DNA from: Acidilobaceae archaeon
GTDB taxonomy: Archaea; Thermoproteota; Thermoprotei_A; Sulfolobales; Acidilobaceae
Direction: 5' to 3'
Assembly: GCA_038824665.1 (NCBI GenBank)
Contig: JAWBBK010000002.1
Location: forward strand, 1-50,354
DNA: 50,354 bases
A program made the position numbers and the translations under genes. The notes under the pieces are model-generated. The model had not been told where the DNA came from and made no database searches. It saw only the letters and a program-made list of their open reading frames with translations. Numbering within the stretch: position 1 is the stretch's first letter; every line of letters starts with the position of its first letter. Of the stretch, positions 8,257 to 38,883 are shown in pieces.

Positions 8257-8562
8257 GTGCACGAACTCAGAAACCTAATCTACGCTTTAGTCATAGCGGT
8301 CTTAGCGATTTCAGCATCGCTAGCTTGGGCTCAAGAAGGTCAAGAGAGCACTGTTCTTTATAAAGCTGCAGCAGCTGCAGCAGCTGTAGGCATAGCCGGT
8401 ATAGCTGCTGGAATAGCTATAGCTATGGCTGGATCAGCAGCAGCAAGCGCTATAGCTGAAAGAAGAGAAGCAGCAGGTACGTTGCTGATTATCGTAGCTC
8501 TAGGTGAAGGTATAGCGATCTACGGATTCCTAGTGGCTCTACTTATCATCCTTCTCCTCTAG
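8257..8562 (+). CDS. atpK: A/V-type ATP synthase proteolipid subunit K (c)
   Basis: Signal-like N-terminus and hydrophobic hairpin with IVALGEGIAIYG carrying the conserved Glu; GAGGTG RBS. Confidence 0.88.
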   Translation: MHELRNLIYALVIAVLAISASLAWAQEGQESTVLYKAAAAAAAVGIAGIAAGIAIAMAGSAAASAIAERREAAGTLLIIVALGEGIAIYGFLVALLIILLL

Positions 8563-23481: not shown

Positions 23482-26400
23482 TTATTGAACTTGGTTCTCA
23501 CGTTTAAGCTGATTGAGTAAAGAGATAGCGACTATGTAGATCTCGCTGACCAGGAGAGCCAACGAGCCTATCCACACTAGGTTGACGTAGTGTACAGTCT
23601 TAACTCTTAGAAGTAATCCTTGTGTGACTAAAGTGGAGTTCTCAGGTTTAAAGTTTTCTATGGTTTCAATTACATGAAATAGAGCAGGAGTCATAGATTC
23701 AAGCATACTCAAAGAGATCCTCAGCGTAAAGATCCTCTGGAAGAATGGCTCTATGGTTTCAGTATTAGTTAAGATCGAGACCCACACAATGCTTTGTGTG
23801 AGAGGATCTAGCCACTTAGCAGCTGCTGCCTGAATTTCTGGAGGAGCATTCGCTAAAGCTGGTGGCATGAAGAGCTTCATGTTTAAAAACGAAAGAACCA
23901 TGGCTACCCCTATTTTGTCAATAGGGTCGAGCTCTTTGAATACCTCATGTAGGTAAAACATTAGAGACTCAGGTAGAGAGATCGAGGCCGGTACTTGTGC
24001 CATCATTCCATGAACCATAGGCATGTAAATGAAGATCCCTCCTATAGGAATCGATTTTTCATAAAACGGTAAGTAGGGCTCTACGTATATCTCTGTAAGT
24101 CCTGTTCTGATCACTAGAGGCTTTGGAACTGTTCCCTTTATTCCTTGAAGCTCACCATTGATATCGAATCTAGCCTCTACTGTTTGTCTGTAGACTTCAT
24201 TACCTTTTCTTATCTCAAAATGTAACAAAAGCTTTGCGCCTTCAGGTAGCGTAGAAGGTAGCGGAGGCGCTTGTGCTAGTCGTGCTAGCTCGTCTATTGT
24301 CAGTTCTCTCAACTCGACATAGCTTAAAGCTCTTCCGCTAGTTCTCTCTATCATAGTCATGATGGCGGTCTCATTTGTTAAAATCTCAGCGTAGCCTGTT
24401 TTCAAAAGTATGTTCCAAAGATCGCTTCTTTCAGAGGAGAGTCTAGAATAGTAATAGACTTCTTCGCTTAAGATAAGAGAAGGTATCTGAAAGACCTCTC
24501 TTACAGATTCTAAAAGACCTCCTATATCTACAGTCATGTTGCTGAACTCTAGAACTATCTTCTCGTCCGAGACTTTGACTAATGGATTTCGTAGCGTTAA
24601 GTTGTGAACAGATAAAGTTACACCCCTCATATTTAGCTTTAAGTTTGAAGGTTTGACTATAACGCTATCTATCTTTGATTCGAGCGCTTTTTGTGCTTCT
24701 TCACTCATACTTAGCTCTATTAAGACGCTTCCTGAAAAGGAAGCGGTTAATATGGCGTAACGTATGTCTGTTGCGTTAATGTTCTCGAGTCCATAGTCTA
24801 GATTGATAGATAACGTCTCTAACTCTAAAACCAGCTTCTCAGCCTTCAGCTCTAAGACCTTGTTCTGCTCTCTCAGTATCACTACATCGCTCATCTCTTC
24901 CTCTATCGATAGAGTTAAAGAGTGGTTTCCGAGGACTTCTAAAATCCCGAAAGACTCTAACAGCTTCATTCCTTTATAGGCTTTACTCCAGGCTTCAGTC
25001 CACTCTGTAGCTATTAAGAGAAGGGTCCAGTAACCAGACAACTTATAATAGGGAAGTCGTTCTTTATAGGCATTGTATACGTCTACAGGCTCCCAGAAGA
25101 CCTGATATTCATAACCTAAAAACTTGACTTTAACGTCTCCTAGGTCCACTTCTTCACCTACTTTTAGTTGCACGAAGTCGCTGAAATACCTCTGATTGTA
25201 TGCAAAGGGACCACTGAGGATTACTCCTAGAGCTAAGAGAGCTAAAGAAAAGTGTAAGAGAGAAAGCCCTAGAGTTCTATGTGTGAACTTAGAAAAGCTC
25301 AAGATCACAGAAATGGCGCTAGAGGCTAGCGCTAAAGCTAAAGGCGGAAGGCTTAGCGATATCATTACATTAGTCCAGATACTACTAAGCGGAGACCATA
25401 CGAGATAACCTCTATAGCTTTGAATAGCTAAGATCGTTCCTGCAATTAAAGATGCAACAACTAGAACTAGATGAGTTCTTAGGCTCAGTCTTTCTCTAAG
25501 AGAACATAAAGGCATACTGAGAATTCCTATTAAGAAAGCAGGAAAGAGCAATGGATACGTAGCTTTAACGAAACTATCGCCAGCTAAAGTTATCTGAGTT
25601 GCATCTCTTCCGATAGCGGAGACTCCTACAGGGATCAAGAGGACGATGTAAACGACTAAAGAAGCAATGAGTAGAGCTATAAAAGACGCTAACATACCGA
25701 TGAGATAAGGAGACTTGCTTTCTACTACCTTTTCTATAGTCTTCATAGACTCTTTACTGGTCTCGTTTAGAGCTAACACAAGAAAAGCTACGATAAAGAG
25801 GAACAGAATCCCTATAGCAATTGTTCGAGCTTCTGCGAAACCATGAAGAGGCGAGAGTCCTGTTCTGGTTACGGCCATACTTAAGAAAACCGAAGAGGCA
25901 CTTAAGTAAAGCATAGCGCTAGCCAAACGTTTGCTAAATGGAATAGAGTGGAAGTAAGCAGTGAGGAAGAGCCACGGGACAAGTGTTGAGGTCTCGACAG
26001 GATCCCATGCCCAATAGCCTCCCCATCCTAATGTTGTATAAGCCCAATAGCCTCCCGTTACGTTACCGAGAGTTAAGAATATCCAACCTATTCTAGCGGT
26101 GTTTAAAGCAACTTGTCCATGTCTTCCAAGTTCTAGAGCAGCGCTTAAAGGTATAAGCGAATAAGCGGCGAACACAGTTAGCGGATGAGGTAGCAACCAG
26201 AGGCTTTTTAAAAGAGGATTTATTCCCATTCCTGTAGTCGCATCAAAGCCTGTCTTTTCAAAAGCTCCGAGAAGCATGGCTAAGATTGTTCCAGAAACCA
26301 CTAAGGCGTTACTTAAAGTCAGAGCGACAGGGTTCAAAGTCTTAACTATTAGTCTAGCGATTAGAGATCCAGTGCTTAAAACAGCTACGAACAGAACTAA

Positions 26401-26664
26401 GCTACTACCTCCACCAGCCCAGCTAGATCCTATTTTGATCAGTAACGGCAATCCTGGAGCTGAGGTCTCGTAGACAGGTTTGAGACTATAGTCTTGGACT
26501 ACGAAAGAGTAAACATACAACACATAGCCTAAAAGCGTCAAGACCAGACCTACATATCCAAGAGCTTCAACCCTCTTTTTGGCTAAAAGGAGTAGCAGAA
26601 CTTCCGATACGAGAACAACAATTCCGCTGATCATAATCAGTCCTGTGTAGTGAATGTCTAACAT
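23482..26664 (-). CDS. ccmF: Cytochrome c biogenesis heme lyase CcmF with large extracytoplasmic insertions
   Basis: GINPLL, HPL, WAY..LGWGGYWAWDPVE (WWD motif), YFHS, PLHGFA and LLH; C-terminal VNLVWIG. Confidence 0.92.
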   Translation of the reverse strand: MLDIHYTGLIMISGIVVLVSEVLLLLLAKKRVEALGYVGLVLTLLGYVLYVYSFVVQDYSLKPVYETSAPGLPLLIKIGSSWAGGGSSLVLFVAVLSTGSLIARLIVKTLNPVALTLSNALVVSGTILAMLLGAFEKTGFDATTGMGINPLLKSLWLLPHPLTVFAAYSLIPLSAALELGRHGQVALNTARIGWIFLTLGNVTGGYWAYTTLGWGGYWAWDPVETSTLVPWLFLTAYFHSIPFSKRLASAMLYLSASSVFLSMAVTRTGLSPLHGFAEARTIAIGILFLFIVAFLVLALNETSKESMKTIEKVVESKSPYLIGMLASFIALLIASLVVYIVLLIPVGVSAIGRDATQITLAGDSFVKATYPLLFPAFLIGILSMPLCSLRERLSLRTHLVLVVASLIAGTILAIQSYRGYLVWSPLSSIWTNVMISLSLPPLALALASSAISVILSFSKFTHRTLGLSLLHFSLALLALGVILSGPFAYNQRYFSDFVQLKVGEEVDLGDVKVKFLGYEYQVFWEPVDVYNAYKERLPYYKLSGYWTLLLIATEWTEAWSKAYKGMKLLESFGILEVLGNHSLTLSIEEEMSDVVILREQNKVLELKAEKLVLELETLSINLDYGLENINATDIRYAILTASFSGSVLIELSMSEEAQKALESKIDSVIVKPSNLKLNMRGVTLSVHNLTLRNPLVKVSDEKIVLEFSNMTVDIGGLLESVREVFQIPSLILSEEVYYYSRLSSERSDLWNILLKTGYAEILTNETAIMTMIERTSGRALSYVELRELTIDELARLAQAPPLPSTLPEGAKLLLHFEIRKGNEVYRQTVEARFDINGELQGIKGTVPKPLVIRTGLTEIYVEPYLPFYEKSIPIGGIFIYMPMVHGMMAQVPASISLPESLMFYLHEVFKELDPIDKIGVAMVLSFLNMKLFMPPALANAPPEIQAAAAKWLDPLTQSIVWVSILTNTETIEPFFQRIFTLRISLSMLESMTPALFHVIETIENFKPENSTLVTQGLLLRVKTVHYVNLVWIGSLALLVSEIYIVAISLLNQLKRENQVQ

Positions 26665-26670: not shown

Positions 26671-27723
26671 TCACCCCATAAGAGAAGCGTAGACTCCTAA
26701 GGCTATCATAATAGCTCCGCTTAGTCTCGCTAAGTTTTCGGCTCCAACTAGCTTATATATCATGCCAGCTACTCTACCTGAGGTATAGACTACTATAGCT
26801 AGCGCGATTGCCAATCCGGAGACCAACAGAAAGAACGCTACTAGCCCTAGAGCTAGAGAGTTTAAAGCAGTCGGAGATAGAAGAGCTCCTATGAGCAAGG
26901 GTAGACTACACTGAGAGGCTATTACTCCAAAGCCAAGACAGGCTATTTCAAAAGACCTGACTTGTACTTTAGTTAAATACCAGCCAGTTTCTCTTAGCGT
27001 CACAACAACAAGTCCTAAAGCTATTAGCAGAAAGCCTAGAGCCTTTGGCAAGACTTCAATGAAGTTAGTTAATAAGGCGACAGAGAACATCACTATCAGA
27101 CCGAGCGTTGCTAGACCAGCGCTAGCCAACAGAGCACATTTAAGAGCAGTAGAAACTCCAGGTCTAGAGGCTATAGAGGCTGAAGCGTATAAAGCAATGA
27201 GCGGTGCGCTACATGGTGAAAAAGCTATAGCAACTCCTAAGATCGGGTAGAGAACTAAGCTAAAAGCAGAAGGTTCGAGAGACCTCTCTTCATCTTTAGG
27301 CTTTAGGGATTCCTCAATGATCTTAGTCAGTTCGGCAGAACTCCTCACGTTCTGTAGAGCGTTCCACTCCAGCCTTGAGACCTCTCTGAGTTCTCTATCT
27401 AGAACTAATATCGTAGGGGTTCCCTTTACTCCATAGGAGATAGCTATCTGAAAAGCCTTAGGGTCATTGAGGCTCAGCTCCAACGTTTTTACGTTAGGGG
27501 CTATAGAGAGTTCGTTCCAATAAGGCTTGATTTTATCACAAAGTCTACAACCTGAACTCGTGAAAAGAATCACTAACCATTCAGCATCGTCGACTTCAAG
27601 CTTTTGGTGCTCAACGCTCTCTCGAGGAGCAGTTGAAAGCAGGATTACAAGAGTCAGAAAGTAGAACACTAAAAGGACTCCTAGCAACTTCTGGTCTTCG
27701 ACTACGTCCTTGACTCTCAACAA
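26671..27723 (-). CDS. Thioredoxin-CcdA/DsbD-type fusion for heme-motif thiol reduction
   Basis: Extracytoplasmic CRLC...GTPT thioredoxin fold followed by a multi-TM domain with FSPCSAP and QCSLP. Confidence 0.8.
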   Translation of the reverse strand: MLRVKDVVEDQKLLGVLLVFYFLTLVILLSTAPRESVEHQKLEVDDAEWLVILFTSSGCRLCDKIKPYWNELSIAPNVKTLELSLNDPKAFQIAISYGVKGTPTILVLDRELREVSRLEWNALQNVRSSAELTKIIEESLKPKDEERSLEPSAFSLVLYPILGVAIAFSPCSAPLIALYASASIASRPGVSTALKCALLASAGLATLGLIVMFSVALLTNFIEVLPKALGFLLIALGLVVVTLRETGWYLTKVQVRSFEIACLGFGVIASQCSLPLLIGALLSPTALNSLALGLVAFFLLVSGLAIALAIVVYTSGRVAGMIYKLVGAENLARLSGAIMIALGVYASLMG

Positions 27724-27775: not shown

Positions 27776-29392
27776 CTACAGACTTTCAGATTTGAACTCT
27801 CTGATGGACTGATGTCTGCGGAAGCTGAACGGTGATAAGAGTTCTAGAGCAAGCCCAAAGGCTCCAGGAAGAGAGGTCAAAGCTGCTATTTTGATAGAAC
27901 TTTCTTCAACGCTTCTATAAACGGCTAGCTTTACAGCTAGCGAGAGTTCTTCTGTAGGCTCAGGGATCAACGTTTTCCCGCTAGCCAGAGAAGCTATATA
28001 GTATACTTGTAAAAAAGCTTCGAGAGAAGGAGCGAGTACGACTACGATCTTTACCACATCTCCACCTACTCTCTTTGAAAGCTCTAATGGCTTTTCGAAA
28101 ACCCACTCTCTTCGTTTTTCACACCAGTAGAACTTGAACGCGAGTTCTTCAGTCCATACTCTGCCTTTATACTCAAACTGTAAGTCTATTCTACCTCGTA
28201 CGCTTTTTTCTCTCATATCGAAATCTAGGTCTTCAAGAACGCCTATTCTGACGGATACATCAGTGATTTTGTCTGTAAGCGTAGAGTTCAGACCTACGAG
28301 AACGGAGTTCTCTTTGATAGGCTCTATCGGAATAGAGAGAACAAGAGGAGCAACTATTAGAGCTACCAAAAAGGGAGCAAAAAGCCTCAATGGTCTTCTT
28401 CTAGTAGCTATGACTATGAGAGAGGCAAGGACTGTTCCAATAACGTAGGAGATAGGGACTGTGACTATTCTCATGGTGGTTAGTAGCCAAGAGCTAGCTA
28501 AGCTAGTGAGAACTGCTCCAACAGCTCCGAGAAGAGATCCAGCAAGAGTTCCTGAGAAGAGCACTAAAGCAACGGCTCCAGACACTATCAGAGAAGCTAG
28601 GACTTTAGCGTGTTCTCTTGGAGTGGAGAATCCAAAGACTTCTAAAAACATCATAACTAAAAACATGAAAAAAGCTAAAGTCAGTCCTAGACTTACAATT
28701 TCTCTCTCCTCTTTTCTGAACTCTAAACCTTTGGGAACAGTGGGCTCTGAGACTTTCTGAGTGAAGAGCGTAACTAAAGAGTAAAGTGCAAATACAGAAA
28801 GCAACAGATCGCCTCGATAGACGTCTTTAGCTAGAAGCCCTCCTTGTACAAATCCTATGGTTAGGATAGGAGAGGCTACTGAAAGAGTTCCCAAAAGACC
28901 ACGAAGACTTGAATCTTTGAGGAAGCTATAGCAGAGTGTAGCGGTGGTTGCAACAGCTAGAAGAAGTATATGAACTCTTCCAAGAAGGTTTTCAGCAGGA
29001 GCTCCTAGAAGCTGTAAGTGTCTAACCTCTAGGCCCCAACAAATTCCCAAAAGAGCTAGAGAAAGCCAAGACCAGATCCTAGCGTCATCATGTCCTGAGA
29101 GAGAAGCGATAGCAGAGAGAAGGATAAGGTGAGAGGCTAGCGCTAGCACTGGGAAAGCAGAAGGGTTCCAATCGTCTCTGAGAAGAGCTAGAGAACTCAA
29201 AATCAGTTGAGTTAGGATAGCACCAAGACCCAACCTTAGAGCCTCTACAGACTTGATATGAAGATAGACGGCGAGAGTGGCTAGAGCAGCAGGGAGGACA
29301 TAAAGGAGAGGAGGAGGAGCGGCTACAGCTGTGAGTACAAGAGCTAAAGACACTGCAGCAGTAGCGGCAGCTCCTATCTCTAGAGCCTTCAC
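27776..29392 (-). CDS. Polytopic membrane protein with extracytoplasmic C-terminal domain (possible degenerate CcmF-like)
   Basis: About 12 TM segments, then a ~140-aa soluble domain and a final TM; in the cytochrome maturation operon. Confidence 0.6.
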   Translation of the reverse strand: MKALEIGAAATAAVSLALVLTAVAAPPPLLYVLPAALATLAVYLHIKSVEALRLGLGAILTQLILSSLALLRDDWNPSAFPVLALASHLILLSAIASLSGHDDARIWSWLSLALLGICWGLEVRHLQLLGAPAENLLGRVHILLLAVATTATLCYSFLKDSSLRGLLGTLSVASPILTIGFVQGGLLAKDVYRGDLLLSVFALYSLVTLFTQKVSEPTVPKGLEFRKEEREIVSLGLTLAFFMFLVMMFLEVFGFSTPREHAKVLASLIVSGAVALVLFSGTLAGSLLGAVGAVLTSLASSWLLTTMRIVTVPISYVIGTVLASLIVIATRRRPLRLFAPFLVALIVAPLVLSIPIEPIKENSVLVGLNSTLTDKITDVSVRIGVLEDLDFDMREKSVRGRIDLQFEYKGRVWTEELAFKFYWCEKRREWVFEKPLELSKRVGGDVVKIVVVLAPSLEAFLQVYYIASLASGKTLIPEPTEELSLAVKLAVYRSVEESSIKIAALTSLPGAFGLALELLSPFSFRRHQSIREFKSESL

Positions 29393-29413: not shown

Positions 29414-29454
29414 AAAACGGAGAAAAAGAAAAAGAAAAAAGAGTGGGGAAAAAG
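29414..29454 (-). terminator. U-rich archaeal terminator after the tetraheme cytochrome gene
   Basis: Minus strand reads CTTTTTCCCCACTCTTTTTTCTTTTTCTTTTTCTCCGTTTT immediately after the stop codon. Confidence 0.7.
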
Positions 29455-29456
29455 AT

Positions 29457-30602
29457 TTACTGAACTCTCCTAGAGGCTATGGCTAGTCCTAGTCCAGCGG
29501 CGATAGCGAAGAGTGCGACTAGTGCTTGAGCTATTGAGGCTAAGCTTATGGCAGGGGCTTCAGAGACAGTAACTACTTTCACAGGCTGTATGTTGTGCGG
29601 ATCAGTTAGCTCGAAGACGCTAGCGGGTATTCCAATGAGCCAGAAACCGTCTGCGAACTTGATGGGGCTAGTTCCTGTAGCTGGAACAGGAGTAGCAGTC
29701 ACGAAGTGACAGTTGTAGCAGACAAGCCAGGCTTCTCTAGCTGGACGTGTATAGCCAGCGTAGGGTCCTGTGAACATGTTCTGAGTCTCAGCAGCTCTGG
29801 TACCTATGGGCAGTATTATCACTCCTCCAGTTACAGGACCTACATTAGACCAGCCGCCGGCGAGACCACCGGTTGGGGTGGGACCGATGAAGTTATAGGT
29901 AGGCTTGTATCTGAAGGTCAGTAGCTGGACCTCAACTCCATAGGCTTGTGTCCCAAAGTCTCCGCCGTCTCCATTGTCATATGCAGTGAAGAGTTCGTAT
30001 AGAGTCAGATAGCCTACGAGGGCGCCGTTTTCGAACTTAGGAGCTGCAGTAGGTGTGTTTCCGGGAAGTCTGACAAGGACTCTGGTCAGATACTTTAGCC
30101 CCTCACCAAAGCCTGTTTCAGGAGGTATGTAAGGCTTGTAAGCAGGTAACTGGGTTGGCACGGATGCGCTCTTTATCATATCGACCGTAACTCCAACGCT
30201 GCTCAGAGCGTTTTTAAGAGCCTCCTCGCCTTCTGAGTTTAGACCTATGAGAGCGAAGACTGCCCAGGCCTCGAAGGACTGTTGGGCATCGAACTTTCCT
30301 GCGTGGATCACAGCATGACAACCACAACCTATGCTGCTGTGGACGCTCCGTGCGACGCTATTAGCTACACCTGAGTGACAGACAGCACAAGCACTCCAAG
30401 CCTCTTCCGTATAGACAGTGTGATTCCACATCATTGTACCAACATCTTGTACTAGGTCTCCAGCCTTAGTTCCCGCATTGCGGTCGTAGTAAAGTGAGTA
30501 GTGGCAGGCGTTGCATCTATCCGGGTGTCCTGCTAACGCTAGAGGCGATAGCAGAGGTAGTGTTAGTAAGACAGCAAGGAGCAAAGCAGTTAGTCTATTC
30601 AC
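29457..30602 (-). CDS. Tetraheme c-type cytochrome, archaeal extracellular cytochrome nanowire (ECN)-like subunit
   Basis: Signal peptide; CNACH, CAVCH, CGCH (CxCH) and CYNCH; W.IGIPA.V..LTDPH.I; C-terminal TM + RR; GAGGTGA RBS. Confidence 0.85.
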   Translation of the reverse strand: MNRLTALLLAVLLTLPLLSPLALAGHPDRCNACHYSLYYDRNAGTKAGDLVQDVGTMMWNHTVYTEEAWSACAVCHSGVANSVARSVHSSIGCGCHAVIHAGKFDAQQSFEAWAVFALIGLNSEGEEALKNALSSVGVTVDMIKSASVPTQLPAYKPYIPPETGFGEGLKYLTRVLVRLPGNTPTAAPKFENGALVGYLTLYELFTAYDNGDGGDFGTQAYGVEVQLLTFRYKPTYNFIGPTPTGGLAGGWSNVGPVTGGVIILPIGTRAAETQNMFTGPYAGYTRPAREAWLVCYNCHFVTATPVPATGTSPIKFADGFWLIGIPASVFELTDPHNIQPVKVVTVSEAPAISLASIAQALVALFAIAAGLGLAIASRRVQ

Positions 30603-30646
30603 TCTAGGTCACCTCTGTCGTGCTCTAAAAAGAGACTCCAGACCTT

Positions 30647-32758
30647 TTATTTTTTTATTCTTAGAATTCTCTCTTGAAAAATGTAAAACACTTTCAGATT
30701 CATAAACCCCCAACCAGTAAGGCTTAGAGGTCTAAGGACGAGCCTTCTAGCCTTACTAAGCCCTACAGTGAAGAGAGCGACAGCAACGACTGCTAAGACT
30801 ACTGTCAACAACATCCTTCTAGCCTCTATGTAAGGCTCTAGAAGGGCCTCTCTGAAGCCTAAGTCGGCTATGCTGATTCTAGGGTCGGAACGGGGACGAG
30901 CGGCAGAGACCAGCTTTATTTCTTGAGACAAGACTTTTACTTCCTCAGCGTTGTTCACATAGATCACGACCTGTCTTATCTCGTTGTCCCAGGCGATGGC
31001 TCCGTTTACAAGCTCTTCTACAGTGTAGCCTATAGAAAACTCTAGAGGAACTCTTAGACGCTCAACTGTAGGCGCAAGCTCAAGTTTTCCTCCCCAAGAT
31101 CCGCCTGCTAAATAGTTGAACAGAACTCCGTTCAGAGCTGATCCTCTCTTGACTGTCACCACCTCTAACCTCAGCTCAACAGGCTTAGAGAAATCACTAG
31201 GTTTGATCTCAAGAAGCAAAGACGTTTCGAGCCACTTATTCCAAGAGAGTCTGGTGTTTAGATCAGTCACTAAGACCCAAGTGTCTTGAGGAGCACTCTC
31301 CAGAGCTCTTCTTAGCTCGGACAGCTTAGCTAGGTCCTCTAGTCTCCCCTGACCTCTTGCCATCTTCTTCTCGAGCCATGCTATCTCTGTCTTGAGATAC
31401 TCTGCAAGAGGTAGAGCAAAAAACCTGACGCCTTGCTCCATTTTTTCGAAAGCTCCTCTTTCAGTGACCTCAAAATCAAGCCTAGTCTCTAGTCTCACGG
31501 TGGGTCTTTCTACATGAGGTCTCTCTAAGACCAGAGTACCCAAAGCTCTACCTCTAGCTTCGAAGAACATCAGTACTTTGAAGACTATGGTGTGATTCAT
31601 GAAGTTTCTTATTGCAACAGCTCTAATGAACACGGGCTGAACGCTACCCGGGTCGGCCTCGAACTTGACTCTGGTAGAGGCTCCGTTAACTGTATCGTTA
31701 GTCCCTATGTAAACAGCTAACCAACCTCTTCCCAAGTCTTCTATCTTCAAGACCTTTGAGGGTAGCTCAACAACCTTGTCTAAGACTTTGGGAGAGATTC
31801 TCACTAAGCCTATACGCTTAGTCACGTTAAAAGATATTAGCTCGAACTCTTTGAAAACGCTATTCCACTTCAGTTTAAGCACAAGGTTTTCTATGAGAAC
31901 TTCTTCTGCAACTAGAGTTTGAGGTAAGTCATGAGGTAAAAACACTTGCTCTCCGCTCTTCAGAACTAGTTCTGTTGAGAACGGTGATCCTCTAATCTTT
32001 CCAGAGATTTCAACTAAGAGGACTCTAGGATTTATTCCTCTGGTAATTGGGTTGTCGGAGAAGAATATTCTCAGAACAGAAGCCTCGCTGAAGCTAGGAT
32101 ACGCTACAACGTCTATCATAACTCTAGATCCACTTCCATCCGTTAACTCGTAGCGTATCCAATTATGACCTGTTCTTTCAGTGTCAAGTCTAACTGCTGC
32201 TTGAGCTAGACCTCTCGTGTAGACTAGCTCGACTCCTATCTTCCTAAGGGCTTCTTTAAGGTCTAGAGTCCAGACCACTCCTCTATATCCATCTGAAACC
32301 ACTATCATTAACTTTAGGGTCTCTATCCTCAGGTCTAGGTTAGGATTGAGAACATCTAAAGCGAGAAGTATTGAGCCAGTGTATCCACTAGCCTCTCTCG
32401 ACATCTCAACATCGTAATACCAGGTAGGATAGGGCTTTACTGGAGCAACGCTCCACTTTGCTCTCACAAACACTTCCTCTACCTCAAAGCCTAGAGCTTT
32501 AGACAAAGCGCTTTTTGAGAACTCATACTCAACAGAGATTTGATAGCAAAGCTTCATATCTCTAGAAAAGACAACAGATATAGTTCCAACTCTATAGTTC
32601 TCAATGAAAAGCCCTATTCGAACTGACCTCTTCGATATCTCTTCTATTGCGAGATTGAGTTCTGGAGGAAGGCTTTGAGCTAAAGCCGCAACTGGCAGAA
32701 GCTGAGCTAGCGTTAGCGCTATGAGCAAAACTACACTTAACGTGCTTTCATGACGCAC
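30647..32758 (-). CDS. Secreted, membrane-anchored beta-rich hypothetical protein
   Basis: Signal peptide (..VAALA|QS) and C-terminal TM + KARR; overlaps the upstream protease gene. Confidence 0.7.
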   Translation of the reverse strand: MRHESTLSVVLLIALTLAQLLPVAALAQSLPPELNLAIEEISKRSVRIGLFIENYRVGTISVVFSRDMKLCYQISVEYEFSKSALSKALGFEVEEVFVRAKWSVAPVKPYPTWYYDVEMSREASGYTGSILLALDVLNPNLDLRIETLKLMIVVSDGYRGVVWTLDLKEALRKIGVELVYTRGLAQAAVRLDTERTGHNWIRYELTDGSGSRVMIDVVAYPSFSEASVLRIFFSDNPITRGINPRVLLVEISGKIRGSPFSTELVLKSGEQVFLPHDLPQTLVAEEVLIENLVLKLKWNSVFKEFELISFNVTKRIGLVRISPKVLDKVVELPSKVLKIEDLGRGWLAVYIGTNDTVNGASTRVKFEADPGSVQPVFIRAVAIRNFMNHTIVFKVLMFFEARGRALGTLVLERPHVERPTVRLETRLDFEVTERGAFEKMEQGVRFFALPLAEYLKTEIAWLEKKMARGQGRLEDLAKLSELRRALESAPQDTWVLVTDLNTRLSWNKWLETSLLLEIKPSDFSKPVELRLEVVTVKRGSALNGVLFNYLAGGSWGGKLELAPTVERLRVPLEFSIGYTVEELVNGAIAWDNEIRQVVIYVNNAEEVKVLSQEIKLVSAARPRSDPRISIADLGFREALLEPYIEARRMLLTVVLAVVAVALFTVGLSKARRLVLRPLSLTGWGFMNLKVFYIFQERILRIKK

Positions 32759-34661
32759 CTTTCCTCACTCTCCTCCACATAATTCCAATTGCTAAGAGAG
32801 ATAGAATGCTTATCTGAAAGTCTACAGCGGTGCTTATGTTTTCTGCCTCTACTGGGGTCATAGAGGCTAGACCTTCAAGAGCAGTAGCCCAAAAGCTCTC
32901 ATAAAACTCTTCTCCTACTCCTGAAGCTATGTGAAGCATTCTATAGGCTTTGAGATAGACTAGGGCTAGCTCTAGATAGTAGAGTCTGTACTCAGGTCTT
33001 TCCTGAAGACTTGCTAGCTCTAGATAATAGAAAGTCATTAGAGGAACTCTTTTCGTCTTGGAGAACTCTACGTTTATATTCTCTTCAAGTGTTGACAGTC
33101 TGAGGTCTCTGAAGGGATCATGAGGAATGGGTAAAGCTATCATTGTTAACCCTCGTCCGGTTGCCTCTAAAGAGTGTACGAGAGCTCTCGGATAATCTCC
33201 TATTTCAGCTGAACTTCTAGACGCACTCAAATGTAATAGCGCTTGGGTTCTGATCTCAGACTGGATTTCAACAGTGTACAGCGTAGCGTAGTTAGATGCG
33301 GTATAAAAATACTCATAGACTTTTTGAGAGGCTTCATAGAGTTCGCGATACGGGATCTCCATACCCTCTGCGTTGACGAAGTAAAGAAGAGCTAAAACTT
33401 GAGCTCTTAACGAGTAAAAAGCTACGTTAGCGGCTAAGTACATAGCGTATTCGCTGTTTAGAGCTCCGAGACGTGAGACCATAGCTATTCTAGCTACGTA
33501 GTCTGAGGCTTCTTCGAGAAGGCTTCTACAATAAGCTAAAGTCAATAGATGGTCTGGAGTAGCTGAAGGCGTTAAACGGACAACCCACGTTGAGACAAGA
33601 TAGACTTTGAGAGCTTCAGTAATTGCATGCCTTGGGTCTCTTTCAGCAGCTAAGAACGCTAAGTACTTAGCGTACTTGGCGTGATAATAGGCTAAAGCTA
33701 AAGCGTCAAAGGGAACGATCAGATAACCTTTGCCTTTTAGCTCTCGACTAAACTCTAGGTAGGCTTTAGCTTTAGAGACAGAGTTCAGTAGAGACTCTTG
33801 CATCTGTCTCGGTATGACCTTTCGGAGTCTCTCAATGATGTTCAAAGTAGCTTCAAGATCTCTTTCTATCTCACGCTCGTATGTTTCCATCACGCTATGC
33901 GCTAAAAGAACTCTGCTCTCAGGAACGGCTAGTCTTAATTTTTTGAGGTTTTGAGAAGGCACCTCAAACTTCAAGTCAGTAGCTATATTAAGGACTTCAA
34001 AAACTCCTGTAGCCTGATGAATGGACACGTTCAAACGTTCTAGACCTAAGCTTTTCATAACGATCTTGGGGGTCTCGATTATGTATGGTCCAAACGTTCT
34101 ATATTCTGTCTCGACGCTTACAGTCACGTTTTGGAGAAGTGGGATCAAGAGTTCAGAGTAGCCTCGAGTCGCTACTGCTTCAGCTTTGGTCTCGATGTCT
34201 CCAACCCATCCAATTAGTCCATCGGGCTGGACTACGCCTGTAGATACTAGACCTTTCTTTACTTCTGTTTTTGTAAGAGCGGAGTAAGTGGCTAAGAAGA
34301 CAGTAAGCCCTAAGCTGGGTCCCGTTATCCACCAGAGTCTTCTATTGTCTTCAGCTTCGATCTTCACGTAGAAGTCGAGAGACCAGGGATTACGTTGAGC
34401 TAAAAGAGCAGCCTCATAGCATGCCATGAGCAAAGAGGCCATAAAAAGTTCATCTCCTTTTACGTTGGTTAGAATTCTTCCCGATCCTGGATAAACTTCA
34501 ACTGAGACTTTGATCACAAACCCTTCGACTGGATCGTCCCGGTACCTGTGGACTCCAACGCCTAGAGCTTCTCCTTTGCTGATAGAACTAGCTAGAGGTA
34601 AGCTTGGCTGTAGAACTATCATGACCAAGATCAGTAGAGCTATCGTAACTCTCATCTTCAA
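32748..34661 (-). CDS. Secreted ATP-independent Lon-like (S16) serine protease
   Basis: Signal peptide, ITGPSLG (catalytic Ser), TGVVQPDGLIGWVGDIETKAEA (catalytic Lys), no AAA domain, helical C-terminal region and TM. Confidence 0.85.
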   Translation of the reverse strand: MKMRVTIALLILVMIVLQPSLPLASSISKGEALGVGVHRYRDDPVEGFVIKVSVEVYPGSGRILTNVKGDELFMASLLMACYEAALLAQRNPWSLDFYVKIEAEDNRRLWWITGPSLGLTVFLATYSALTKTEVKKGLVSTGVVQPDGLIGWVGDIETKAEAVATRGYSELLIPLLQNVTVSVETEYRTFGPYIIETPKIVMKSLGLERLNVSIHQATGVFEVLNIATDLKFEVPSQNLKKLRLAVPESRVLLAHSVMETYEREIERDLEATLNIIERLRKVIPRQMQESLLNSVSKAKAYLEFSRELKGKGYLIVPFDALALAYYHAKYAKYLAFLAAERDPRHAITEALKVYLVSTWVVRLTPSATPDHLLTLAYCRSLLEEASDYVARIAMVSRLGALNSEYAMYLAANVAFYSLRAQVLALLYFVNAEGMEIPYRELYEASQKVYEYFYTASNYATLYTVEIQSEIRTQALLHLSASRSSAEIGDYPRALVHSLEATGRGLTMIALPIPHDPFRDLRLSTLEENINVEFSKTKRVPLMTFYYLELASLQERPEYRLYYLELALVYLKAYRMLHIASGVGEEFYESFWATALEGLASMTPVEAENISTAVDFQISILSLLAIGIMWRRVRKGAS

Positions 34662-36142
34662 GGTCTAAACCTCCTAATAGCTATCGCTGAGGCTATAGTG
34701 GAGATCAAGAAGAAGAGAAAGATAGAGATCGCAGTAGCGTTTATAGGAGGTCTAGATTCATCAGAGCCTTTCGGAAGCCAGAGGTTTGTCGGAATTCCTG
34801 TTGCGATTTCTCTAGTGACTATATGTGGGTCGAATACTAGACCGTCGAGCTTAATAGGTATTCCATCAAGTCTTCCTGTAACGCTTCCGTCAGGCATTGA
34901 GATCAGATGGCAGTTGTAACAGACCAACCATCTTGATCCAGGGAATAAACGAGAGGTGGTGTTCGCTAAGACCCATCCGTCTCTCATAGCGTACGCTATT
35001 CCAGCATATCTGAGAAGTCCGCCTATGCTTATCGCGTAGATAGGCACACAAGGAGAGGTTCCTCCATAGACATCAGGATAGTAGCGTCCTTCAGGCGGCT
35101 CTACTCTAAACCATATACAAAGAGCGCTGTTGTTAGCTGGAGTATATCGTAAAGCCTTTTTCCAAGAGTTCCAATCCGTTAAGTCTTTGTAGACAGAGTA
35201 GGTTCCAGGAGGCGAAGCATAAAGTATAATCCAAGAGGCTGTACTATTGTATCTAGAGATATGGAGTGCTCCATGACATCTACAACCAAGCCTTGCGTGA
35301 ACGCTTTGAGATACCTTGCTCGCTACTCCAGAATGACATCTACCACAATAAACTTCGTTAGCCTTAGGAGCGAAGTCTACGGTATGAGCTTTAGCTGAAG
35401 GAGTGGTAGTGAAGCCTGAGCTAACTGTAGTCAGTTTTGAGTGACATAGAGCGCACTCACCTGGATGCGTATAAATATAGCTAGTTGTCGTATCCCAAGC
35501 GGCAGGTCCGGCGTTAGCGAAATGACAGTGAAGACAGGTAAGGTTTCTAGCTTCGGGGGGGTATGCACCAGCAGGGCCTAAATAGGGGTTCATAAAGGCA
35601 ATCACGTAAACGCCTAAACGGACAACTACGGTTGTGCGGTAGAACCTGTTCTTAGCTATGTCTGCAGTCTTCGTGGTCGTAGAACTCACGTAGTAGGTCA
35701 TACTGAACACAACAGTATTGGCACTTATTCCTGGAGGAGGGTCCCAAGTAGAGAGCGCTATATTATGATCACATCCATAGGTTCTCCTAGTTGTGTCTAG
35801 TGTGAAGCGCTTGTGACCATCATGGTGTATCTGATGACAGTAAGAACAACCGACGCTTGCATGAGGCCCCAAAGCCACTTCTCTGGTGTGAGGGGCAGTT
35901 CGGGGAACGTCTGAGTGGCAGGCTATACATCGATAGTTTTCTAGTAGTCCTGAAGCGACGCTCCACACAGCCTCAGATACTATCTTAGGGTGACAAAACA
36001 TACACATGAGTTTCTCGTTCCAAGCGGAGAAAGTAATTCTTCTAGTATGTGAGGTTCCACCTATGTCGGCTACGGTTTCAGTTGTCGAGAGTAACAAAAG
36101 AGCCAGCAGAGCTACTGCGATCAACAGTTTAGCGTTAGCCAT
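34658..36142 (-). CDS. Octaheme c-type cytochrome with C-terminal ECN-like module
   Basis: CMFCH, CIACH, CSYCH, CLHCH, CALCH, CGRCH, CRCH and CYNCH; DPH; signal peptide and C-terminal TM + RR. Confidence 0.88.
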   Translation of the reverse strand: MANAKLLIAVALLALLLLSTTETVADIGGTSHTRRITFSAWNEKLMCMFCHPKIVSEAVWSVASGLLENYRCIACHSDVPRTAPHTREVALGPHASVGCSYCHQIHHDGHKRFTLDTTRRTYGCDHNIALSTWDPPPGISANTVVFSMTYYVSSTTTKTADIAKNRFYRTTVVVRLGVYVIAFMNPYLGPAGAYPPEARNLTCLHCHFANAGPAAWDTTTSYIYTHPGECALCHSKLTTVSSGFTTTPSAKAHTVDFAPKANEVYCGRCHSGVASKVSQSVHARLGCRCHGALHISRYNSTASWIILYASPPGTYSVYKDLTDWNSWKKALRYTPANNSALCIWFRVEPPEGRYYPDVYGGTSPCVPIYAISIGGLLRYAGIAYAMRDGWVLANTTSRLFPGSRWLVCYNCHLISMPDGSVTGRLDGIPIKLDGLVFDPHIVTREIATGIPTNLWLPKGSDESRPPINATAISIFLFFLISTIASAIAIRRFRP

Positions 36143-37682
36143 ATCTTATCACCCTATCAAAAGCTGTCACTATAGCTCTCGGAATCCCATCTACAGAGAC
36201 TACAGAGATCGAGGTGAAGGTATATTTGAGCCCTGTGCCTGTCTCTGTAATGGCAGTAGCAGTCCAGATCGAGGCTCCGGTATCTCCTCTGATCGCTCTC
36301 AGGGTATAAGTCAAGCTCGTAGTGCTACCTGTCTGATACATCACCAAAAGGTCCAACACTCCGTCTCCGTTCACTTCGACAACAGCTAAGCTAGCCGTTC
36401 TAGCTACGGCATCACGAGTTCCAGTGTTAGGACCTATAGGGCTAGGAGGAGCAGCACTCCACTTTATGTCAAAAGTGCCAGTAGCTGGGCTGTAGTCTAT
36501 TCTATGAAGATAGAGGTCCTCTCCTACTACAAATATTTCGTCGAGTCCGTCTTTATCTACGTCAGCTAAAGCTATAGCCGGTTGAGAAAACCAGACAAAG
36601 AAAGTCCTTCCGCTAGGCGGAGAGATTACATAGAAAGCGTTAGTGCAGGGGTTTAAAACCACAAGATAGCCAACGCTTCCGCTCTTGTACCAAAGGCCGC
36701 CGGATTGAGCAAAAGTCTCTTTACCAACGCTGACCACCACGTCTTTACAAACAGCTCCAACAACTTTGCCTACAACAGGGCTGTGGATTATGAGAAGCCC
36801 GTTGAGTCTCGTGTCAAGCTCCCATAACCTCCACTCTCTAATAGTCTTCCCGTCTTTTCCGCTCACTACGTAGACTACTGCTGGATATCCTCTCGTGTAG
36901 ACAACATCGAGAACTCCATCTCCATTAACGTCGTCAAGGAGAGCTGGGCTAGAGACAAAAGAGAGTCCATAAGACTTATGGCGCCAGACTAGAAACCCAG
37001 TCGTAGCGTCAATAGCGTAGAGCCCATCGCCTGCGCTGACTAAGACTAGAGGAGGACCGTTGGGATCAAGTCTCCAAACCAAAGGGCTTGTAGGTGGATG
37101 TGATTCAACGAAAGGCAGACTGGTTCTCCATAAAACGCTCCAGCTCCATGTAGTTGTGAACTTAATACAGACAAGCTGTTTCCCTCCTGTCCTTACGCTA
37201 GCGGTTAAGGCTATGAGTTCAGCTCTTCCATCTCCATCTACATCATAAGCTGTAGGAGCGCTGAAACTCCCTAACTCTAGATCAGGAGGCGCGAGTCTAA
37301 GTTGCTGAACTCCATTATCGATCCGTACTATATAGAGGACTCCAGCGGCGTTTACCAAAGCCACATCTATTATTCCGTCTCCATTGAAGTCTGCAGCAAC
37401 AGGATTAGCGTGAAAAGGGAAATCGTCATCAGCGGGATCTAACGTCCACTGAGAAGTTGGTGCAGCCGTTAACCCCATGCTGCCTACAGTGACAGCAGCT
37501 GTTCTGTAAGGGTTTCCTGCAAGAGTCCACCAAGTAGTTGGCGGAGGTCCTGGAGTAGACGTTTGTCCCAAAACAGGAACGACAACGTTCTTAAGGTCTT
37601 GAGAAGAAGGAGATTCCAATATTGTTGCCGAGAGCGCTATCAATATGATTAGAAACGCAAAGAGCGCTAGCCTTGTTTTCAT
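36135..37682 (-). CDS. Secreted FG-GAP/PQQ-like beta-propeller protein
   Basis: Repeated DxNGDG/DVDGDG Ca-binding blades and LYAIDATTG..VW motifs; signal peptide. Confidence 0.85.
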   Translation of the reverse strand: MKTRLALFAFLIILIALSATILESPSSQDLKNVVVPVLGQTSTPGPPPTTWWTLAGNPYRTAAVTVGSMGLTAAPTSQWTLDPADDDFPFHANPVAADFNGDGIIDVALVNAAGVLYIVRIDNGVQQLRLAPPDLELGSFSAPTAYDVDGDGRAELIALTASVRTGGKQLVCIKFTTTWSWSVLWRTSLPFVESHPPTSPLVWRLDPNGPPLVLVSAGDGLYAIDATTGFLVWRHKSYGLSFVSSPALLDDVNGDGVLDVVYTRGYPAVVYVVSGKDGKTIREWRLWELDTRLNGLLIIHSPVVGKVVGAVCKDVVVSVGKETFAQSGGLWYKSGSVGYLVVLNPCTNAFYVISPPSGRTFFVWFSQPAIALADVDKDGLDEIFVVGEDLYLHRIDYSPATGTFDIKWSAAPPSPIGPNTGTRDAVARTASLAVVEVNGDGVLDLLVMYQTGSTTSLTYTLRAIRGDTGASIWTATAITETGTGLKYTFTSISVVSVDGIPRAIVTAFDRVIRYG

Positions 37683-37761: not shown

Positions 37762-38883
37762 CTAGCAGAAACGGGGCTTCGAAACCGTCTCTATATAACT
37801 TGTTTTAACTCTCTCTTTCAGTCTAGCAGCTCTTGGATGAATTAAGTGATCGACAACGGTTCCACAGGCTTCTGTTATCTTCATTCTATAAGCAAGCTTT
37901 TCTTCGAGACCGCCAGCTATGTCTAAACCTAAGAGAGCATATCCTTGTGCTGCTTCTTTTATGCTTCCAGCTCCCGGTAGTCCCTTTAGTCTTACTATTT
38001 GAACGTCTTTGAGCTTCTCTTGTATTATCTTCAATACTCTTCTGTTTCTTGCATATCTGCCTGTAACCACTACCACTTCTGCTTCTGGAACAGAGACTAG
38101 AACTCTCATCACGTCTTTAGCCACGTTTTCAACATAGGTCTCAATAATCTCATCGTTTGCGTCTTCTAAAGCGGGACCAGAGAGTTCAACTAGTCCTCCT
38201 TTTAATGAATCCCATCTGTTCCAACAACCAGCTCCTGCAACGACCTCAGCGTCAAGACATCCAGCAGTCAATATACCTCCTGAGGCTACAGTGCCTCCTA
38301 CGCCATCTACTATAAGCCCTCTTCTTACAGCTATGGTTGCACTGTAGCCAAAGCCGAGCTCAGCTACAACTAAGTTGACTTTCTCCAAACCTCCTTCTCT
38401 TTCAGAAAACTCGTAGACGGAGAGATAAGCTGAAGCTAGCTTGTCTGCTGTTCCCATATCTATTTTGTTAAGCTTCCTCCGCCACGGAACAGTGGGAAGC
38501 AAGATCACTGAAGGTATGAATAGAGTTTTATGTCTAGCTCCTGTCAACAAGGCTTCAACGACTTTCACTAAAGCATCATACACCAAGACTCCGAACTCTC
38601 CCTCTTTAACTCCTTGACTCACCTCGTTCTCGCTAGAGAGCAATAAGATCTCTAAGGCGAACCTCCTAGCGTCTACGACCTCGTTTCCCCAGGTCAACGG
38701 AACCCCGTAGCCTGACGGAGCCACTATAACGTCTGCCTCAATAGAAAGAACGTATTTGAATAAGCTTTCAGGGTTTTTGGCTACGTCTTCTGTAGGAAAA
38801 GACTTAAAATCTACTGCTTTGCCGTCTTCGATCACAACTACATCAAAGCTTCCTGTTCCGGGGTCTATACCGACAGCTCTCAC
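37762..38883 (-). CDS. DUF1464 family ASKHA (butyrate-kinase-related) protein
   Basis: GIDPGTGSFD, APSGYG, NKIDMGTADK, ELGFGY, IVDGVGGT and KEAAQG motifs. Confidence 0.85.
   Translation of the reverse strand: MRAVGIDPGTGSFDVVVIEDGKAVDFKSFPTEDVAKNPESLFKYVLSIEADVIVAPSGYGVPLTWGNEVVDARRFALEILLLSSENEVSQGVKEGEFGVLVYDALVKVVEALLTGARHKTLFIPSVILLPTVPWRRKLNKIDMGTADKLASAYLSVYEFSEREGGLEKVNLVVAELGFGYSATIAVRRGLIVDGVGGTVASGGILTAGCLDAEVVAGAGCWNRWDSLKGGLVELSGPALEDANDEIIETYVENVAKDVMRVLVSVPEAEVVVVTGRYARNRRVLKIIQEKLKDVQIVRLKGLPGAGSIKEAAQGYALLGLDIAGGLEEKLAYRMKITEACGTVVDHLIHPRAARLKERVKTSYIETVSKPRFC

Follow-up and report, generated by a model that had tools for sequence, protein, structure and literature searches.

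Cytochrome nanowires are a recently recognised microbial route for long-distance electron movement, and to our knowledge archaeal cytochrome nanowires with solved structures are of two types only. PcECN of P. calidifontis (PDB 8E5F, A3MW92; 385 aa) carries three CxxCH sites and one CxCH site, and is described as tetrahaem. AvECN of Archaeoglobus veneficus (PDB 8E5G) and the Geobacter proteins OmcE/OmcS are insulated bis-His c-type haem wires which work alike, with alternating stacked and T-shaped haem pairs in tetra- or hexahaem subunits; their folds are described as unrelated. The secretion and assembly of cytochrome wires are called an unanswered question in the discussion of a 2025 preprint. 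Full-text literature searches returned no homologue distribution for PcECN (Baquero et al. 2023, Cell, the primary source, lies outside that search) and nothing relevant on Acidilobaceae multihaem cytochromes, and the accessible portion of the proteomics of Kashyap and Holden (2021; PMC8105010) holds no protein mappable to an ECN homologue.

The window analysed here, a stretch of 50,354 nucleotides from an uncultured hot-spring Acidilobaceae archaeon (assembly GCA_038824665.1, contig JAWBBK010000002.1), encodes a 381-aa protein (GTG start, TAA stop) which, by sequence comparison, is a true homologue of PcECN and a divergent new example of an already known protein kind. The gene, the features of its product and the signals flanking it are as follows.

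30644..30659, minus strand: AT-rich TATA-like box AATAAAAAAATAAAAG, −57 to −42 from the start (from sequence; similar in relatives)
30609..30615, minus strand: Shine-Dalgarno-like GAGGTGA, with a 6-nt spacer to the GTG (from sequence)
29457..30602, minus strand: gene of the ECN-like, predicted tetrahaem c-type cytochrome (homology to 8e5f_A, E 3.4e-14; family alignments)
30531..30602, minus strand: predicted signal peptide, residues 1-24, ending ALA before G25-H26 (from sequence; hydrophobic segment at residue 1)
30501..30515, minus strand: haem site 1, C30-N-A-C33-H34 (Cys, Cys and His in 40/40 family rows)
30375..30389, minus strand: haem site 2, C72-A-V-C75-H76 (40/40 family rows)
30315..30326, minus strand: probable haem site 3, C93-G-C95-H96 (CxCH, one-residue spacer), then H100 (family columns)
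29721..30302, minus strand: haem-free middle domain, residues 101-294 (194 aa), clade-specific (no Cys or His; hhalign; insert lengths)
29706..29720, minus strand: haem site 4, C295-Y-N-C298-H299 (40/40 family rows)
29595..29642, minus strand: C-terminal motif W321-LIGIPASVFELTDP-H336 (H336 in 40/40 rows; G324, I325 and P326 nearly invariant)
29475..29558, minus strand: C-terminal hydrophobic helix, about residues 349-376, then SRRVQ (from sequence; basic tail conserved in the family)
29414..29453, minus strand: oligo-T tract with runs of T5, T6, T5, T5 and T4, putative archaeal terminator (T content)

A phmmer search of all PDB chains matched 8e5f_A at E 3.4e-14 (55.9 bits) over two stretches, 5-117 and 279-375, with no other relevant match; the AvECN and OmcE/OmcS chains were absent from the matches at E ≤ 10. 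The similarity to PcECN on which the sequence-only reading depended is thus significant. By blastp, the protein of the PcECN locus was found at E 1.2e-13 and Pyrobaculum-type relatives at values down to 4.6e-20; Pfam and NCBIfam searches gave sub-threshold cytochrome matches only. The 8e5f_A sequence itself was located as L027:10912-12069(-) (890.9 bits over residues 1-385), and what the sequence-only reading stated of PcECN holds on that gene: the motif order is the same, site 3 reads GCACH, and the C terminus has a hydrophobic helix with RRR behind it. PcECN shares with the window protein the order CxxCH, CxxCH, CxCH, CxxCH, the same five further conserved histidines, the signal peptide and the C-terminal helix with its basic tail, although the two are only 26% identical overall.

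Conservation within the family follows the haem-binding residues. In a 17-row alignment that includes PcECN, all eight Cys and H26, H34, H61, H76, H88, H96, H100, H299 and H336 are invariant; in a 40-row alignment of single-module members, the eight Cys and the four attachment-motif His are invariant in 40/40, with H26, H61, H88, H100 and H336 kept in 36, 35, 39, 39 and 40 of the rows, respectively. The window protein contains exactly eight Cys and nine His, every one inside the motifs G25-HPDRC30NAC33H34, W59-N-H61, C72-A-V-C75-H76, V87-H88, G92-C93-G-C95-H96-AVI-H100, C295YNC298H299F and W321LIGIPASVFELTDPH336. Four bis-His haems call for eight His; the nine conserved ones, five of them candidate distal ligands outside the attachment motifs, leave one to spare. 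All motifs listed in the sequence-only reading, from the CxxCH sites, the CxCH and the haem-free insert to the transmembrane helix and its arginine pair, are present in the translation.

The third site merits separate attention. A scan of the protein for CxxCH yields three sites, as had been predicted, and the CxCH at C93-C95-H96 is, on the family alignment, very likely a real haem site. The opposing possibility is that it binds no haem, or a haem held by a single thioether, which would make the protein effectively a trihaem cytochrome with a conserved Cys/His cluster in some other role, e.g., a metal site. The motif is indeed non-canonical and lies outside the coverage of the Pfam and NCBIfam models, and a full-text literature search found no treatment of a CxCH haem site in archaeal nanowires. 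However, among the 40 single-module members 31 have CxCH at site 3 and the other 9 have a canonical CxxCH in the same columns, H96 is conserved in 40/40 rows and H100 in 39/40, and PcECN, with its single CxCH, is described as tetrahaem. We therefore regard the trihaem alternative as very improbable. Since CxCH alternates with CxxCH in the family, motif scans restricted to CxxCH undercount haems.

The region between sites 3 and 4 behaves differently from the core. Residues 101-294 make up 194 of the approximately 325 mature residues, and from profile comparison they show no detectable similarity to the middle domain of PcECN, with a very distant relation possible given shallow profiles: hhalign of the window-clade insert against the PcECN-clade insert gave a probability of 0.1% and E 0.45 (Neff about 1.8). 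On a tree of the haem core, the two long-insert clades, that of the window and that of PcECN, are separate, and the window middle domain appears on this tree as an expansion separate from PcECN's. A protein atlas search with the insert returned best scores of 0.81, within the range of shuffled proteins. The sequence-only reading was right that a long haem-free insert is present, but this insert is not the one of PcECN. Polymerisation need not carry over to the window protein, should the subunit contacts of PcECN lie in its middle domain.

This bears on a second interpretation, namely that the protein is a PcECN homologue which stays membrane-anchored as a monomeric or small-oligomer surface cytochrome, acting as a terminal or intermediate electron carrier of the envelope and forming no long filament. 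Only PcECN has been proven to form polymers, and its middle domain and that of the window protein are unrelated; the C-terminal helix and basic tail are conserved throughout the family, and most family members are short forms of 239-312 aa. PcECN, however, has the same anchor and core and does form filaments, and 8E5F orders 293 of its 385 residues, so both subunit ends can be absent from the filament. Also against permanent anchoring, the gene has a TATA-like box on one side and a strong oligo-T tract on the other, as a structural gene with its own transcript would. On these grounds we consider a purely anchored cytochrome unlikely, and prefer the wire subunit.

Structure prediction adds little to this choice. 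AlphaFold2 models reached a mean pLDDT of 43.9 (17 rows) and 53.9 (40 rows), too poor for conclusions about the fold; with such a low-pLDDT model, a Foldseek search of PDB structures found nothing at E ≤ 0.001 and ranked 8e5f first at E 0.02 (TM 0.17/0.22). A complex prediction with two copies of residues 25-350, supplied with only four of the eight haems, scored 0.00 in both runs and bears neither way on polymerisation.

The flanking signals are largely those that the sequence-only reading had described. The GAGGTGA heptamer lies at 30615-30609, at the ribosome-binding position claimed for it, and is one of seven occurrences in the window, both strands counted. The AT-rich promoter-like tract is real, with AATAAAAAAATAAAAG at 30659-30644, where it runs into the end of the upstream 703-aa gene and covers its final codons and stop codon (30649-30647); it is a putative promoter element of the ECN-like gene, and TATA-like boxes stand at a similar distance from the ECN gene in the related loci L030-L032. 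What had been called the clearest U-rich terminator of the window, the tract at 29414-29453, has T at 27 of its 40 positions, more than any other 40-nt stretch of the window on both strands. No terminator hairpin was found there by a bacterial-type scan, as expected for an archaeal oligo-T signal, and bacterial-type promoter and terminator scans are in any case uninformative for an archaeal host. In 8/9 loci inspected, a run of five or more T follows the ECN gene at a distance of no more than 60 nt; a TATA-like box upstream and such a run downstream thus recur at the ECN genes of other loci. The PcECN-type Pyrobaculum genes look leaderless, in contrast to the window gene with its leader and Shine-Dalgarno-like site.

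The ECN-like gene stands within an island of genes on the same strand, of which seven neighbours are listed below.

23482..26664, minus strand: CcmF/NrfE-like haem lyase, 1060 aa, with a long C-terminal extension (PF01578, 58.2 bits; TIGR00353, 139 bits, below cut-off)
26671..27723, minus strand: thioredoxin-like domain plus CcdA/DsbD-like membrane part, 350 aa (sub-threshold thioredoxin matches)
27776..29392, minus strand: polytopic membrane protein, 538 aa, of no known family, directly downstream of the ECN-like gene (family searches)
30647..32758, minus strand: secreted, C-terminally anchored protein, 703 aa, of no known family (profile of 544-679-aa proteins of PcECN loci, E 1.9e-13)
32748..34661, minus strand: secreted, anchored protein, 637 aa, with an N-terminal Lon-like (S16) protease domain, Ser116/Lys159 (profile against PDB)
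34658..36142, minus strand: eight-site cytochrome (seven CxxCH and one CxCH), 494 aa, with two ECN-like modules and a C-terminal anchor (motifs; alignments)
36135..37682, minus strand: secreted FG-GAP beta-propeller protein, 515 aa (domain search)

Several of these partners recur. The lyase, the thioredoxin/CcdA-like protein, the Lon-like protease, the anchored surface protein and the second CxCH cytochrome are common to the window and four to five genome loci. CcmF-like homologues occur in all ECN loci long enough to show them. Homologues of the 350-aa protein are found in L030/L031 and in PcECN-type loci, with a weak blastp value of 1.5e-6, and a profile of the thioredoxin/CcdA-like proteins gave no match to the 350-aa protein. 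The 494-aa cytochrome has homologues in PcECN-type loci, and in L024 the second cytochrome has a homologue of the FG-GAP protein next to it (E 3.5e-44). A dedication of the CcmF-like lyase to the CxCH site was considered and rejected, because a single CcmF-like protein and a single CcmC-like protein are all that the genome (83% complete) shows and because relatives place the CcmF-like gene within an ordinary Ccm gene set.

A profile of the 637-aa protein against the PDB finds Lon proteases (best E 3e-10), with its GPS and K aligned to the GPSAG and GGxKEK of 7p6u_A, at positions which we take to be the catalytic Ser-Lys residues of Lon. S116 and K159 are invariant in 6/6 homologues, the Pfam Lon_C match, at 21.1 bits, lies at the cut-off of the model, and a homologue is present in 5/5 genome loci (profile E 2.1e-56). 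The protein thus has, on sequence, the Ser-Lys dyad of the Lon (S16) family and is a predicted protease.

We note several differences between this island and the PcECN-type loci. First, the gene order of the island differs. Second, the downstream polytopic membrane protein of PcECN-type loci is unrelated in sequence to the 538-aa protein, as profiles of the Pyrobaculum-type protein and the window protein showed no similarity in either direction. Third, the PcECN-type cluster includes a membrane-anchored cytochrome with eight CxxCH, whose counterpart here lies on another contig (C5) and has seven. In the PcECN-type cluster of G265 (a genome from the same taxonomic order as the host), the second cytochrome and FG-GAP pair is homologous (E 5e-24 and 3.5e-44) and homologues of the Lon-like protease and the ECN protein are present too; that ECN homologue is shorter, at 337 aa with a 105-aa insert, and the cluster holds three additional 8-CxxCH cytochromes. 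The closest relatives, in L030 and L031, are 46% identical to the ECN-like protein, and within 10 kb upstream and 2-6.5 kb downstream these two loci have no protease, 703-aa protein or second cytochrome. As a separate observation, a polytopic membrane protein downstream of ECN genes recurs by position only, its family differing; in 4/4 metagenome loci, a homologue of the 538-aa protein comes after the ECN gene.

The gene is no assembly artefact: with strain variation, it recurs in hot-spring metagenomes, on contigs from four sequencing runs that belong to three studies. The variants listed consist of substitutions and one in-frame 3-nt insertion behind position 30028, and no indel is listed in the CxCH codons (30315-30326) in the runs which cover them (X2, X3 and X4). 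The host genome measures 1.10 Mb at 83% completeness; its only multihaem ORFs are three, all beside Ccm genes, and its whole c-type cytochrome complement therefore appears, at that completeness, to be three proteins. Sampling of 401 genomes from the phylum turned up the PcECN family in 7, the host included, and in 0/12 genomes of the host's own family (Acidilobaceae label); a locus-pattern search of genome contigs gave 25 matches, none of them confirmed.

Such a patchy distribution, together with the small genome, could also be read as the trace of a horizontally acquired island in which the ECN-like gene is a silent or decaying remnant, without present function. Against decay, the reading frame is intact in this gene and in each of its seven island neighbours, no functional residue has been lost, and independent metagenome contigs show, among the variants listed, substitutions or changes that preserve the frame; as to a foreign origin, the GC content equals that of the genome (43.4% vs. 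43.7-45.0% for contigs). We give the remnant explanation hardly any weight.

Taken with the homology, we judge it probable that the window protein is a PcECN-family tetrahaem cytochrome which is loaded with haem by means of the island Ccm proteins and stacks into an electron-carrying wire. The patchy distribution of the family and the variable neighbourhood count against this reading. For this protein, we infer haem occupancy, polymerisation, where electrons would flow and between which partners, how the subunit is processed and how strongly it is expressed, and the same holds for the terms 'major subunit' and 'highly expressed' of the sequence-only reading. The signal peptide, probably cleaved after residue 24, would export the precursor, which its C-terminal helix would keep in the membrane. 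Four c-type haems, one of them on the CxCH site, would be attached outside the cytoplasm by the organism's single Ccm system, with a CcmF-like lyase and a thiol-reducing protein encoded in the same island, and all haems would be bis-His ligated by the conserved histidines. The subunits would then stack such that the haem chain is continuous between them and respiratory electrons are carried away from the cell. In this scheme, the eight-site two-module paralogue is a candidate for the membrane-anchored base of the wire, and a candidate enzyme for severing the subunit from its anchor is the secreted Lon-like protease.

A more far-reaching version is possible but doubtful: that the window encodes a second, structurally distinct PcECN-type wire, with the haem core kept inside an independently acquired 194-aa sheath. 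The PcECN family would then be a far bigger, unrecognised set of archaeal wire subunits (56 cluster representatives, mostly short forms of 240-310 aa), with cleavage by the Lon-like protease triggering assembly and the two-module cytochrome as base. If true, the question of cytochrome nanowire release and assembly would be answered in concrete terms. The present finding extends the P. calidifontis-type wire family to an uncultured hot-spring lineage (Acidilobaceae label) with a very small genome, and suggests that the haem core alone is conserved, the domain surrounding it being replaceable. The recurring partners, i.e., the Lon-like protease, the anchored surface protein and the two-module cytochrome, are testable candidates for wire release and assembly.

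The sequence-only reading had described a tetrahaem subunit resembling extracellular cytochrome nanowire (ECN) proteins, and every motif that it listed, together with a long haem-free insert, was found in the translation of a single ORF, whose features are as follows.

Features of the ECN gene and its product (the window protein)
29457..30602, minus strand: ECN ORF, 381 aa, GTG start
N-terminus: hydrophobic, ending ALA-G25
H26-PDR-C30-NA-C33-H34: haem site 1
W59-N-H61: motif
C72-AV-C75-H76: haem site 2
V87-H88: motif
G-C93-G-C95-H96-AVI-H100: haem site 3 (CxCH)
Residues 101 to 294: haem-free middle stretch without Cys or His
C295-YN-C298-H299-F: haem site 4
W321-LIGIPASVFELTDP-H336: C-terminal motif
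From about residue 349: C-terminal hydrophobic helix, then the tail SRRVQ

The protein contains exactly eight Cys and nine His, every one inside these motifs, and a scan restricted to CxxCH returns three sites, as had been predicted. The gene is no product of misassembly, since it is carried by contigs of four hot-spring metagenome runs from three studies, with strain-level differences that include one insertion of 3 nt that keeps the frame in the middle domain. Three of the runs have contigs that span the CxCH codons, and no indel is listed at this site in any of them.

A phmmer search of the window protein against all PDB chain sequences gave a single relevant match, 8e5f_A (E = 3.4e-14), the subunit of the Pyrobaculum calidifontis nanowire (PcECN), so that the absence of similarity to PcECN, which would have spoken against the earlier reading, did not occur. 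The alignment runs in two stretches, one over haem sites 1-3 near the N-terminus and the other over haem site 4 towards the C-terminus together with the GIP...DPH motif. Searches with Pfam and NCBIfam gave only sub-threshold cytochrome matches. The PcECN sequence itself was located in its genome (L027:10912-12069, minus strand; 890.9 bits vs. 8e5f_A over 1-385). It was aligned with the window protein, 11 relatives from metagenomes (41-47% identity) and four other homologues from genomes, and in these 17 rows none of the eight Cys and nine His of the window protein varies. The PcECN-type family is small: among 1.84 billion representative proteins, a profile search found just 56 at E <= 0.001 (41 at E <= 1e-10). 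Its single-module members were assembled in a 40-row alignment, from which the cluster of the query itself, a partial protein, fragments or short hits below about 240 aa, and multi-module paralogues of 434-863 aa were omitted. Here, the eight Cys, the His of the four haem motifs and H336 do not vary, and H26, H61, H88 and H100 occur in 36, 35, 39 and 39 of the 40 rows, respectively. Family matches occur in seven of 401 sampled genomes of the phylum, its own genome included (0/12 in its own family, 1/5 in one family of the same order and 5/23 in the family holding the PcECN genome). The window protein almost certainly belongs to the PcECN family by descent, and it agrees with PcECN in every sequence feature tested except the middle domain. 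No homology to AvECN of Archaeoglobus veneficus or to OmcE and OmcS of Geobacter was found by phmmer against PDB chains, and any likeness in working to these filament subunits would hold only in the general sense given in the available part of the literature.

The third haem site is CxCH in 31 of the 40 rows and CxxCH in nine, in identical alignment columns, and both forms carry an extra His three residues downstream of the motif. The CxCH site that the sequence-only reading ascribed to PcECN is present in its actual sequence, which has three CxxCH and one CxCH, and the available part of the literature describes PcECN as a subunit with four haems. Based on this motif count and the exchange of the two forms in the same columns, the CxCH site very likely carries the fourth haem. 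Since one CcmF-like and one CcmC-like protein were found in the genome (83% complete), a single lyase probably serves both CxxCH and CxCH sites.

The exception, the middle domain, varies in length across the family. The H100-C295 insert measures 80-115 aa in 23 short-form rows, 177-194 aa in 11 of the 12 rows of the window clade (151 aa in the remaining one) and 160-186 aa in the five rows of the Pyrobaculum clade. A profile-profile comparison of the two long inserts, in which both profiles are shallow, showed no similarity (probability 0.1%, E = 0.45). On a maximum-likelihood tree of the haem-core columns, rooted at its midpoint solely for display, the window clade, itself supported at 100/95, joins a 265-aa short form (98/90), and the Pyrobaculum clade (100/100, long branch) is placed among other short forms. 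The null insert comparison and the distinct positions on the core tree suggest that the two long inserts expanded separately. The PcECN structure cannot serve as a guide to some 60% of the mature window protein.

The ECN gene lies within a minus-strand island of eight genes, from 37682 to 23482.

Genes of the island, in order
Minus strand: secreted FG-GAP propeller, 515 aa
34658-36142, minus strand: anchored cytochrome, 494 aa, seven CxxCH and one CxCH
32748-34661, minus strand: secreted, C-terminally anchored protein, 637 aa, Lon-like N-terminal domain
Minus strand: anchored 703-aa protein, no family
29457..30602, minus strand: ECN gene
27776-29392, minus strand: polytopic membrane protein, 538 aa, no family match
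Minus strand: thioredoxin-like/CcdA-like protein, 350 aa
23482-26664, minus strand: CcmF/NrfE-like lyase, 1060 aa

The 494-aa cytochrome consists of two tandem ECN-like modules, the first with CxxCH at the third site (GCSYCHQIHH) and the second with CxCH (GCRCHGALH), the GIP...DPH motif and a C-terminal anchor; it could be a covalent 'dimer' that forms the wire's base or cap. Module 2, with its HP-x-x-C start, begins only about 20 residues past the last haem site of module 1. In the 637-aa protein, Ser116 and Lys159 are invariant in six of six homologues and align with GPSAG and GGxKEK of PDB Lon proteases (best E = 3e-10; 48 hits at E <= 0.1), positions which we take to be the catalytic Ser and Lys of Lon. 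Its further residues, about 400, match no family. Homologues of this protein are encoded beside ECN genes in five genomes. The 538-aa membrane protein has about 11 hydrophobic segments. The family match of the lyase stops near residue 520, leaving about 540 C-terminal residues without a match, one terminal hydrophobic segment included; its homologues in ECN loci are also long (859-994 aa). The gene immediately upstream of the island, also on the minus strand and with its own GAGGTGA site, encodes a DUF1464 protein (37762-38883, 251 bits), for which no link to the island was seen at other loci.

Five genome loci with ECN homologues were compared with the window. The Lon-like protein is found in all five (profile E = 2.1e-56 vs. 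the 637-aa protein), the CcmF-like lyase in all four Pyrobaculum-type loci, and the partners further include a second cytochrome with CxCH sites and a large anchored protein (profile E = 1.9e-13 vs. the 703-aa protein). PcECN-type loci and the window have a partner set in common; gene order varies between loci. The polytopic protein at the equivalent position in Pyrobaculum-type loci has no sequence relation to the 538-aa protein, a homologue of which directly follows the ECN gene, as in the window, in four of four metagenome loci of the closest relatives (45-47% identity). In the two long loci among these, L030 and L031, the genes for the lyase and the thioredoxin-like protein are also present, upstream and on the opposite strand; no protease, 703-aa protein or second cytochrome is encoded within the DNA examined (10 kb upstream, 2-6.5 kb downstream). 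At one ECN-type locus (L025:8240-10987, plus strand, genome G051), a 915-aa ORF fuses an N-terminal polytopic membrane part with a nine-site second cytochrome (residues 440-863), a fusion in a single ORF which hints that the second cytochrome and the polytopic membrane protein act together. Similarity of this membrane part to the protein after the ECN gene in Pyrobaculum-type loci is weak (E = 2e-4).

The expression signals attributed to the gene by the sequence-only reading, namely a GAGGTGA ribosome-binding site, an AT-rich promoter-like tract and a U-rich terminator, were each located.

Signals flanking the ECN gene
30615-30609, minus strand: SD-like heptamer GAGGTGA, 6 nt upstream of the GTG start
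30659-30644, minus strand: AT-rich TATA-like box AATAAAAAAATAAAAG, at -57 to -42, overlapping the stop codon of the upstream gene
29414-29453, minus strand: oligo-T tract, 27 T in 40 nt (runs T5, T6, T5, T5, T4), the T-richest 40 nt on either strand of the window

Nine ECN loci were compared by eye for such signals. An AT-rich TATA-like box precedes the ECN gene in all nine, and a run of at least five T lies within 60 nt after the stop in eight. In Pyrobaculum-type loci, the box and the ATG are about 25-30 nt apart, a spacing that points to leaderless transcripts; in the window and its relatives, it is about 40-57 nt before the GTG and is followed by a purine-rich SD-like site. Between L030 and L031, the 86 nt that immediately precede the ECN start are 82.6% identical, the sole conserved part of a 3-kb upstream spacer. 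The boxes, the T runs and the conserved 86 nt would fit a gene that has a promoter of its own and whose terminator restricts read-through to the accessory genes. The high expression proposed in the earlier reading is putative. The spacers (L031:6836-9935 and L030:6366-9941) have no ORF of at least 100 aa over the 3.1-3.6 kb directly upstream of the ECN gene; they have no Rfam match and resemble each other only in the last 86 nt. The L031 spacer contains a longest small ORF of 72 aa and a run of degenerate TTACACCYAY-like 10-nt repeats (8366-8535).

Further maturation genes lie on another contig, C5, of the same genome (C5:22511-26254), encoding a CcmC-like protein (394 aa), an unassigned 140-aa membrane protein, a CcmA-like ATPase and an ABC-2 permease (CcmB-like). 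No CcmE model match was found in the 83% complete genome, and the place of CcmE may be taken by the 140-aa protein. Divergent from these genes is a membrane-anchored 239-aa cytochrome with seven CxxCH. Beyond this cytochrome, the ECN protein and the 494-aa cytochrome, no multihaem ORF was found in the 1.10-Mb, 83% complete assembly.

In the proposed working, the window protein would be exported by Sec with its C-terminal helix as an anchor, and its haems would be attached through the Ccm system and ligated by two His each. Release of the subunit from its anchor would follow, with the Lon-like protease as an obvious candidate; in 8E5F, 293 of 385 residues are ordered, which is compatible with the loss or disorder of both ends of PcECN. 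The main rival holds that the window protein is an anchored, non-filamentous surface cytochrome, a reading that we consider unlikely. An ECN homologue with the whole proposed working, filament formation included, is the probable reading; released subunits would stack head to tail into an insulated haem wire, fed with electrons from the C5 membrane cytochrome via the two-module cytochrome. The observation behind the earlier reading is confirmed, and the assignment as an ECN-like subunit is supported by the relation to PcECN, in which homology to a proven wire subunit is joined by conserved haem-binding and candidate ligand residues, common neighbours and sequence signals. The present analysis adds a new lineage whose set of cytochromes is minimal, the alternation of CxCH (31 rows) with CxxCH (nine rows) and the conservation of a Ser-Lys dyad in the associated protease, as well as new evidence that the sheath domain appears to be replaceable in this family.
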